From assembly GCF_017348835.2 (NCBI RefSeq), contig NZ_CP072315.1: a stretch of DNA of 64,000 nt. One strand, written 5' to 3'. Shown here one piece after another: positions 35,262-36,137 of this stretch. Numbering within the stretch: the stretch's first letter is position 1; every line of letters begins with the position of its first letter. The position numbers and the translations under genes are program-made. The DNA is from Escherichia coli (GTDB taxonomy: Bacteria; Pseudomonadota; Gammaproteobacteria; Enterobacterales; Enterobacteriaceae). The notes under the pieces are model-generated. The model saw only the letters and a list, made by a program, of their open reading frames with translations. It had not been told where the DNA came from and did no database searches.

Positions 35262-36137
35262 TTACAAACCGTCGGTGACGATTTTAGCCGCCGACGCTAA
35301 TACATCGCGACGGCTTTCTGCCTTAGGTTGAGGCTGGGTGAAGTAAGTGACCAGAATCAGCGGCGCACGATCTTTTGGCCAGATCACCGCGATATCGTTG
35401 GTGGTGCCATAGCCACCGCTGCCGGTTTTATCCCCCACAACCCAGGAAGCAGGCAGTCCAGCCTGAATGCTCGCTGCACCGGTGGTATTGCCTTTCATCC
35501 ATGTCACCAGCTGCGCCCGTTGGCTGTCGCCCAATGCTTTACCCAGCGTCAGATTCCGCAGAGTTTGCGCCATTGCCCGAGGTGAAGTGGTATCACGCGG
35601 ATCGCCCGGAATGGCGGTGTTTAACGTCGGCTCGGTACGGTCGAGACGGAACGTTTCGTCTCCCAGCTGTCGGGCGAACGCGGTGACGCTAGCCGGGCCG
35701 CCAACGTGAGCAATCAGCTTATTCATCGCCACGTTATCGCTGTACTGTAGCGCGGCCGCGCTAAGCTCAGCCAGTGACATCGTCCCATTGACGTGCTTTT
35801 CCGCAATCGGATTATAGTTAACAAGGTCAGATTTTTTGATCTCAACTCGCTGATTTAACAGATTCGGTTCGCTTTCACTTTTCTTCAGCACCGCGGCCAC
35901 GGCCATCACTTTACTGGTGCTGCACATCGCAAAGCGCTCATCAGCACGATAAAGTATTTGCGAATTATCTGCTGTGTTAATCAATGCCACACCCAGTCTG
36001 CCTCCCGACTGCCGCTCTAATTCGGCAAGTTTTTGCTGTACGTCCGCCGTTTGCGCATACAGCGGCACACTTCCTAACAACAGCGTGACGGTTGCCGTCG
36101 CCATCAGCGTGAACTGGCGCAGTGATTTTTTAACCAT
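35262..36137 (-). CDS. blaCTX-M: class A extended-spectrum beta-lactamase, CTX-M-1 group (CTX-M-55-like: Val77 and Gly240)
   Basis: From ATG at 36137: [46 protein letters not shown]..., 291 aa; reads [11 protein letters not shown] and [10 protein letters not shown]. Allele call from memory. Confidence 0.9.

Follow-up and report, generated by a model that had tools for sequence, protein, structure and literature searches.

The question raised by this locus is which CTX-M beta-lactamase allele is encoded at positions 35262-36137 of the window (the whole stretch of 64,000 nucleotides that was analysed), and by which elements this gene would be expressed and moved. Judged from its sequence, in which nothing speaks against this reading, the interval almost certainly represents an intact, expressible blaCTX-M-55, encoding a periplasmic CTX-M-1-group class A serine beta-lactamase, in a mobile-element setting. 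Both the allele, which has spread worldwide, and its genetic context are already known and the finding is an ordinary one, so that its value lies in surveillance and not in discovery, and no open biological question is touched.

The coding sequence lies on the minus strand, where translation of 35262-36137 gives a single unbroken open reading frame of 291 amino acids followed by a stop. The features within the gene that are needed for what follows are these:

35262..36137, minus strand: blaCTX-M-55 coding sequence, 291 codons plus TAA, with the ATG at 36137-36135 and the stop at 35264-35262
36054..36137, minus strand: predicted signal peptide of 28 residues, with the mature protein starting at Gln29
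35919..35921, minus strand: catalytic Ser70 (precursor residue 73), codon AGC, which opens the S-T-S-K motif
35898..35900, minus strand: Val77 in Ambler numbering (precursor residue 80), codon GTG, whose middle base, 35899, is gene nucleotide 239; blaCTX-M-15 has GCG
35412..35414, minus strand: Gly240 in Ambler numbering (precursor residue 242), codon GGC; common to CTX-M-15, and Asp in CTX-M-3

Two other readings of the interval were considered and rejected. On the plus strand there is no open reading frame and there are many stops, and a longer minus-strand frame of 311 amino acids, starting at a GTG at 36197, places that GTG within the inverted repeat of the insertion sequence ISEcp1. The ATG at 36137 is preferred as the true start because it is preceded by a ribosome-binding site and yields the exact reference protein. 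An earlier sequence-only reading of this DNA was silent on the strand of the gene, and also on the older synonym of the allele, CTX-M-57.

Membership of the CTX-M family is evident from the NCBIfam model NF033089 (blaCTX-M), which scores 626.8 bits against a cut-off of 570 and is covered at positions 1-291 of 291, while the next family model, KLUC, scores under its own cut-off. Membership of class A is likewise evident from NF033103 (bla_class_A), at 337 bits against a cut-off of 200. The motifs used as a test for class A enzymes (Ser70-x-x-Lys73, Ser130-Asp-Asn, Glu166 and Lys234-Thr-Gly) are all intact, with STSK at precursor residue 73, SDN at 133-135, EPTLN, which contains Glu166, from 169, and KTG at 237-239. 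The signal peptide of 28 residues is proposed because the crystallised CTX-M-15 constructs begin at query residue 29 (residues 1-263 of the 4hbt chain align to query residues 29-291), in keeping with what is generally known of class A enzymes, and a periplasmic location of the product would follow from it. No second beta-lactamase-like sequence was found in the window, where bla is the sole beta-lactamase match.

An allele name requires 100% identity to the reference protein, and by exact look-up all 291 of 291 residues are identical to the named CTX-M-55, which occurs on at least 1000 contigs; with full-length identity to a named protein that is so widely found, a chance match is of no concern. 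At the nucleotide level, all 30 plasmid records among the matches listed carry an annotated blaCTX-M-55 that agrees with the 876-nt gene at 100% identity; the reference coding sequence there is WP_015387340.1 (CTX-M-55, AMRFinderPlus identity 100%). The same WP_015387340.1 is the coding sequence in the Salmonella plasmid p2017028-250, which shows no differences from the window over 12.5 kb around bla. Against CTX-M-15 there is one difference at either level, namely a sole A-to-V mismatch at residue 80 relative to the full-length PDB chain 5t66, and a sole gene difference at nucleotide 239 (window 35899), T in place of C, relative to the annotated blaCTX-M-15 of a sister plasmid.

The numbering on which these assignments depend was controlled with a cluster member to which NCBI gives the name CTX-M-62, and this comparison gives an Ambler offset of 3 at residues 77 and 167 and of 2 at residue 240. 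CTX-M-62 and the window protein differ at exactly precursor residues 80 (V/A), 170 (P/S) and 242 (G/D), and CTX-M-62 has been described as CTX-M-3 with P167S (PMC2809773 Table 1). It has further been described that CTX-M-15 is CTX-M-3 with D240G (PMC2809773), that CTX-M-55 carries A77V and D240G relative to CTX-M-3 (PMC4086240) and is separated from CTX-M-15 by p.Ala77Val, c.239C>T (PMC13071274), and that CTX-M-57 is an older name for an identical amino-acid sequence (PMC4086240). The window protein has Val77 and Gly240, and it shows zero differences from the CTX-M-55 reference protein. The sequence-only reading had called the gene CTX-M-55-like and not CTX-M-15, from Val at Ambler 77 and Gly at Ambler 240, and it was right in each respect: Val77 is precursor residue 80 (GTG, 35898-35900) within an 11-residue string spanning precursor residues 73-83, Gly240, the second glycine to follow Ser237, is precursor residue 242 (GGC, 35412-35414) within a 10-residue string spanning 237-246, and the product is the exact CTX-M-55 protein, encoded by a gene one base away from blaCTX-M-15. 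The rules that it had applied, by which Gly240 separates CTX-M-15 from CTX-M-3 and Ala77Val separates CTX-M-55 from CTX-M-15, agree with the published definitions (PMC2809773 and PMC13071274, respectively), and the alignment that it had proposed as a check for further substitutions or a different allele turned up no extra substitution.

Since blaCTX-M-15 and blaCTX-M-55 are one base apart, the allele call depends on a single base in a single assembled sequence, and it could be argued that the gene is truly blaCTX-M-15, with the T at nucleotide 239 being an error of sequencing or assembly, all the more so as a sister plasmid carries CTX-M-15 at the identical insertion site. This is extremely unlikely, as the same T is found in the 30 listed 100%-identical records annotated CTX-M-55 and in 12 of the 13 records having the extended context, and the change is exactly the known c.239C>T (PMC13071274) and not a random error. 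It could also be supposed that this is another CTX-M-1-group allele, in which Val77 and Gly240 are joined by extra substitutions, and in several named alleles A77V and D240G do occur along with other changes (PMC2809773; PMC4086240), such as CTX-M-79, described in published work as an A77V and D240G enzyme that also carries D288N. With 291 of 291 residues matching CTX-M-55, and only one difference from full-length CTX-M-15, such an allele is scarcely conceivable here. The gene is thus read as blaCTX-M-55 in what follows.

Whether an intact blaCTX-M-55 would also be expressed depends on the sequences on either side of it:

36186..36682, minus strand: 3' remnant of ISEcp1 (IS1380 family), 497 bp, cut by IS26 at 36682/36683
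36260..36289, minus strand: candidate outward promoter in the ISEcp1 remnant, TTGAAA, 18 nt and TACAAT, with TG before the -10
36199-36186, minus strand: ISEcp1 right inverted repeat, ACGTGGAATTTAGG
36138..36185, minus strand: 48-bp spacer that separates the ATG from the ISEcp1 right inverted repeat and holds the ribosome-binding site AAGGA
35223..35260, minus strand: terminator-like hairpin identified by folding, starting 2 nt past the stop and running into a U-rich tract

Transcription of bla would start from the outward promoter that is kept in the 497-bp ISEcp1 remnant. In a pattern scan of the region, the TTGAAA-18-TACAAT site was the top promoter-like site, with 10 of 12 matches, and we take it to be the known ISEcp1 promoter from which ISEcp1-linked blaCTX-M genes are transcribed; the 48-bp spacer has the length typical of blaCTX-M-15. 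Beyond the stop codon, the hairpin folds at -23 kcal/mol (z = -5.3), and none of 200 shuffles folds equally well. The pattern scan of the region listed no terminator after bla, where folding gave this strong hairpin, and we think that the scan missed it because its maximal stem consumes the T run. Given that merely 497 bp of ISEcp1 are left, the truncation by IS26 might be supposed to have left bla intact yet silent or poorly expressed. The cut, however, sits 393 bp upstream of the -35 hexamer, with the promoter, spacer and ribosome-binding site untouched, and many plasmids of clinical and animal isolates have ISEcp1 truncated in the identical way, so that a silent gene is very unlikely and an expressible blaCTX-M-55 is the preferred reading.

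The product of this gene would be expected to hydrolyse penicillins and oxyimino-cephalosporins, and the parts played by its two diagnostic residues can be proposed from published work. In isogenic constructs, cefotaxime and ceftazidime MICs (in ug/ml) were 256 and 1 for CTX-M-3, 128 and 2 for the D240G enzyme (CTX-M-15), and >256 and 6 for the enzyme with A77V and D240G (PMC2809773 Table 1). It has been shown that D240G leads to better hydrolysis of ceftazidime and destabilises the enzyme, and that A77V gives higher thermal stability and steady-state expression; a role as a global suppressor, comparable to that of TEM M182T, has been suggested for A77V (PMC5829062, summarising Patel 2015; PMC13071274). 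The stabilisation experiments on A77V were done in a CTX-M-14 background, as opposed to CTX-M-15 or CTX-M-55 (PMC5829062). In clinical isolates, the ceftazidime and cefepime MIC50 tended to be higher for CTX-M-55 than for CTX-M-15 (PMC13071274). Going by this literature, Gly240, at the edge of the beta-3 strand at the active site, would raise activity on the bulky ceftazidime and lower stability, while Val77, which is remote from the active site, would act as a global stabiliser that restores thermal stability and enzyme level, which in turn would lead to cefotaxime and ceftazidime MICs above those of CTX-M-15. An ESBL phenotype, with cefotaxime and ceftazidime resistance and inhibition by clavulanate, may be predicted for this gene from published data on the identical protein (PMC2809773; PMC13071274).

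The mobile-element setting of bla is a module that reads, in the direction of the gene, IS26, ISEcp1 remnant, spacer, bla, truncated wbuC/orf477, Tn3-family tnpA fragment and IS26. The parts not yet given are as follows:

36683..37502, minus strand: IS26 upstream of bla, 820 bp, with an IS6-family transposase (Tnp26 N184) and 14-bp terminal inverted repeats
34883..35215, plus strand: 5'-truncated wbuC/orf477, cupin-fold, convergent with bla (TIGR04366 cupin_WbuC, positions 47-132 of 132)
33516..34878, minus strand: internal fragment of a Tn3-family transposase gene (NF033527 transpos_Tn3, positions 51-499 of 954)
32696..33515, minus strand: IS26 downstream of bla, 820 bp, Tnp26 N184, identical to the upstream copy and in the same orientation

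What is left of the ISEcp1 transposase is the last ~85 residues (positions 335-419 of 419 of the IS1380-family profile), where records with an intact element in the same place annotate it as ISEcp1/ISEc9. An ISEcp1 transposition unit has both inverted repeats and a full transposase, and no such unit is present in this module; a transposase reduced to ~85 residues allows no self-mobilisation, while the promoter function is kept. On the other side of bla, the truncated wbuC locus is annotated in sister records as a 'WbuC family cupin fold metalloprotein', and we take this fragment to be passenger DNA of Kluyvera origin within the ISEcp1 transposition unit. The Tn3-family gene that follows has lost both of its ends, the one nearer bla to the ISEcp1 unit and the far one to IS26, and its score of 423.7 bits lies under the full-length cut-off of 500, as expected of a fragment. 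About 1450 plasmid records hold the inner module at coverage of at least 80%; those that match exactly carry the annotation CTX-M-55, and those next in rank, still ~100% identical, carry CTX-M-15.

The IS26 pair brackets a resistance segment of 3167 bp, and its two copies are complete and direct, with tnp26 on one strand, which is the arrangement of a pseudo-compound transposon or translocatable unit. Since ISEcp1 is dead here, movement of bla would depend on IS26 and on conjugation. Further movement would rest on the direct IS26 copies, by way of a translocatable unit, a cointegrate or IS26-IS26 recombination, and conjugation of the IncHI2-type host plasmid would provide a second route of spread. 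In the window as a whole there are six complete IS26 copies (4225-5044, 8187-9006, 22107-22926, 27341-28160, 32696-33515 and 36683-37502). Those at 4225, 32696 and 36683 are identical and encode a Tnp26 with Asn184 (G184N, IS26-v1-type), whereas those at 8187, 22107 and 27341 have Gly184 and depart from the first three at element positions 207, 208 and 362. The Tnp26 G184N variant, of IS26-v1 type, has been reported to be more active (PMC9019673).

The wider setting is that of a large multidrug-resistance plasmid of IncHI2 type. Window positions 22984-64000 (41 kb) match the Salmonella plasmid p2017028-250 (NZ_CP090546.1) with four differences, three of which are inside one IS26. This plasmid is typed as IncHI2A/IncQ1, MOBH and MPF_F, is conjugative, and comes from a patient in Henan, China. 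The backbone genes in 22984-64000 include umuDC, dsbA, trhH, traG, mobI, mobH and traD, and the backbone is collinear with typed IncHI2 plasmids. The match of this segment to IncHI2 backbone, with the resistance region before it, places the bla module at the boundary of the two. As the replicon genes are beyond the window, the sequence may instead reflect chromosomal integration of an IncHI2-type plasmid. Among E. coli complete genomes no fully collinear source record was found, and it is IncHI2 plasmids from Salmonella that match best overall. At 37476-39020, the right-hand IS26 is separated from umuDC by three small hypothetical open reading frames of the IncHI2 backbone (56, 118 and 205 aa), the first of which directly abuts that IS26.

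When the whole window is set against NZ_CP090546.1 without gaps, 21,361 mismatches result; divergence was rejected as their cause, as BLAST shows that the first 23 kb are rearranged. This part of the window (1-22983) belongs to the multiresistance region that is also found, differently arranged, in NZ_CP090546.1. Positions 1-5044 are an inverted copy of NZ_CP090546.1 136005-141048, consisting of a class 1 integron with aac(6')-Ib-cr, arr-3, dfrA27 and part of aadA16, together with an IS26, and positions 5045-22984 are an inverted copy of 106851-124790, with floR, tet(A), aph(6)-Id, aph(3'')-Ib, sul2 and an IncQ-type repC. IS26 copies stand at the breakpoints of this rearrangement, suggesting inversion mediated by IS26. 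Between ~24500 and ~31700, annotation transferred from a near-identical record shows mphR(A)-mrx(A)-mph(A) adjoining IS6100 and IS26, and aac(3)-IId adjoining a gene annotated only as 'AAA family ATPase'. At 28386, just outside the IS26 at 27341-28160, there is a 1-base indel relative to NZ_CP090546.1 (C against a gap).

A different relationship is seen with pEC22-CTX-M-15 (NZ_CP084901.1), the IncHI2A sister plasmid from E. coli, which has the same insertion and flanks as the window and carries blaCTX-M-15. Over window positions 29000-41500 there are three differences in 12.5 kb, namely bla nucleotide 239 (35899) and, in both flanking IS26 copies, a synonymous change in the codon for Pro132 (33057 and 37044). 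Each of them falls inside the IS26-bounded unit, which hints at module exchange or gene conversion over an isolated point mutation. It is conceivable, although doubtful, that the two form a natural near-isogenic CTX-M-15/CTX-M-55 pair within an IncHI2 lineage, in which the allele was switched in place or the whole IS26-bounded module was swapped. A switch in place may have been a gain of A77V, or else a return to CTX-M-15 by reversion or gene conversion, and a swap of the whole module may have been aided by the flanking copies with their more active Tnp26 G184N. As to the origin of the allele itself, the shared context of ISEcp1, 48-bp spacer, orf477 and Tn3-family tnpA argues that blaCTX-M-55 here probably descended from blaCTX-M-15 through one C-to-T transition.

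For annotation, the correct label is blaCTX-M-55, not blaCTX-M-15, on the minus strand. The gene matters as a transferable ESBL, in which Val77 is reported to give cephalosporin MICs higher than those of CTX-M-15, and because many other resistance genes are on the same IncHI2-type plasmid, third-generation cephalosporin resistance can be co-selected and spread among Salmonella, E. coli and Klebsiella.

Several known systems can be set beside this locus. At the level of the enzyme, the TEM M182T global suppressor is like A77V in being a distal substitution that offsets stability lost to a specificity-broadening mutation (PMC5829062); it belongs to another enzyme family and another position, and the likeness is one of analogy only. 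At the level of the module, a classical composite transposon differs from the IS26 pair in the window, around which the 8-bp target duplication is absent (AAAAGTCC at 32688-32695 against ACGCAAAG at 37503-37510). Such a duplication of the target site of the whole unit is expected only after replicative insertion as one unit, and its absence means that the unit either was not inserted as a classical composite transposon or had its flanks later reshuffled by IS26. Missing duplications are common in IS26 arrays and are compatible with IS26-mediated movement. The module does share its parts, their order and the direct IS26 pair with the IS26-bounded dISEcp1-blaCTX-M-15/55-orf477d-dTn3-family-tnpA module of IncHI2 and other plasmids, and its junctions are identical to those of p2017028-250 and pEC22-CTX-M-15.

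At the level of the allele, CTX-M-3 has the same CTX-M-1-group scaffold, sharing 289 of 291 residues with the window protein as estimated from the CTX-M-62 comparison and allele tables, but it has Ala77 and Asp240 in place of Val77 and Gly240 and is a cefotaximase with slight ceftazidime activity (ceftazidime MIC 1 ug/ml). CTX-M-15 (WP_000239590.1; PDB 5t66 and 4hbt) is closer, sharing 290 of 291 residues, Gly240 included, and differing in having Ala at Ambler 77 (GCG) where the window gene has Val (GTG). CTX-M-55 (synonym CTX-M-57; WP_015387340.1) is the same as the window gene over all 291 residues and 876 nucleotides.
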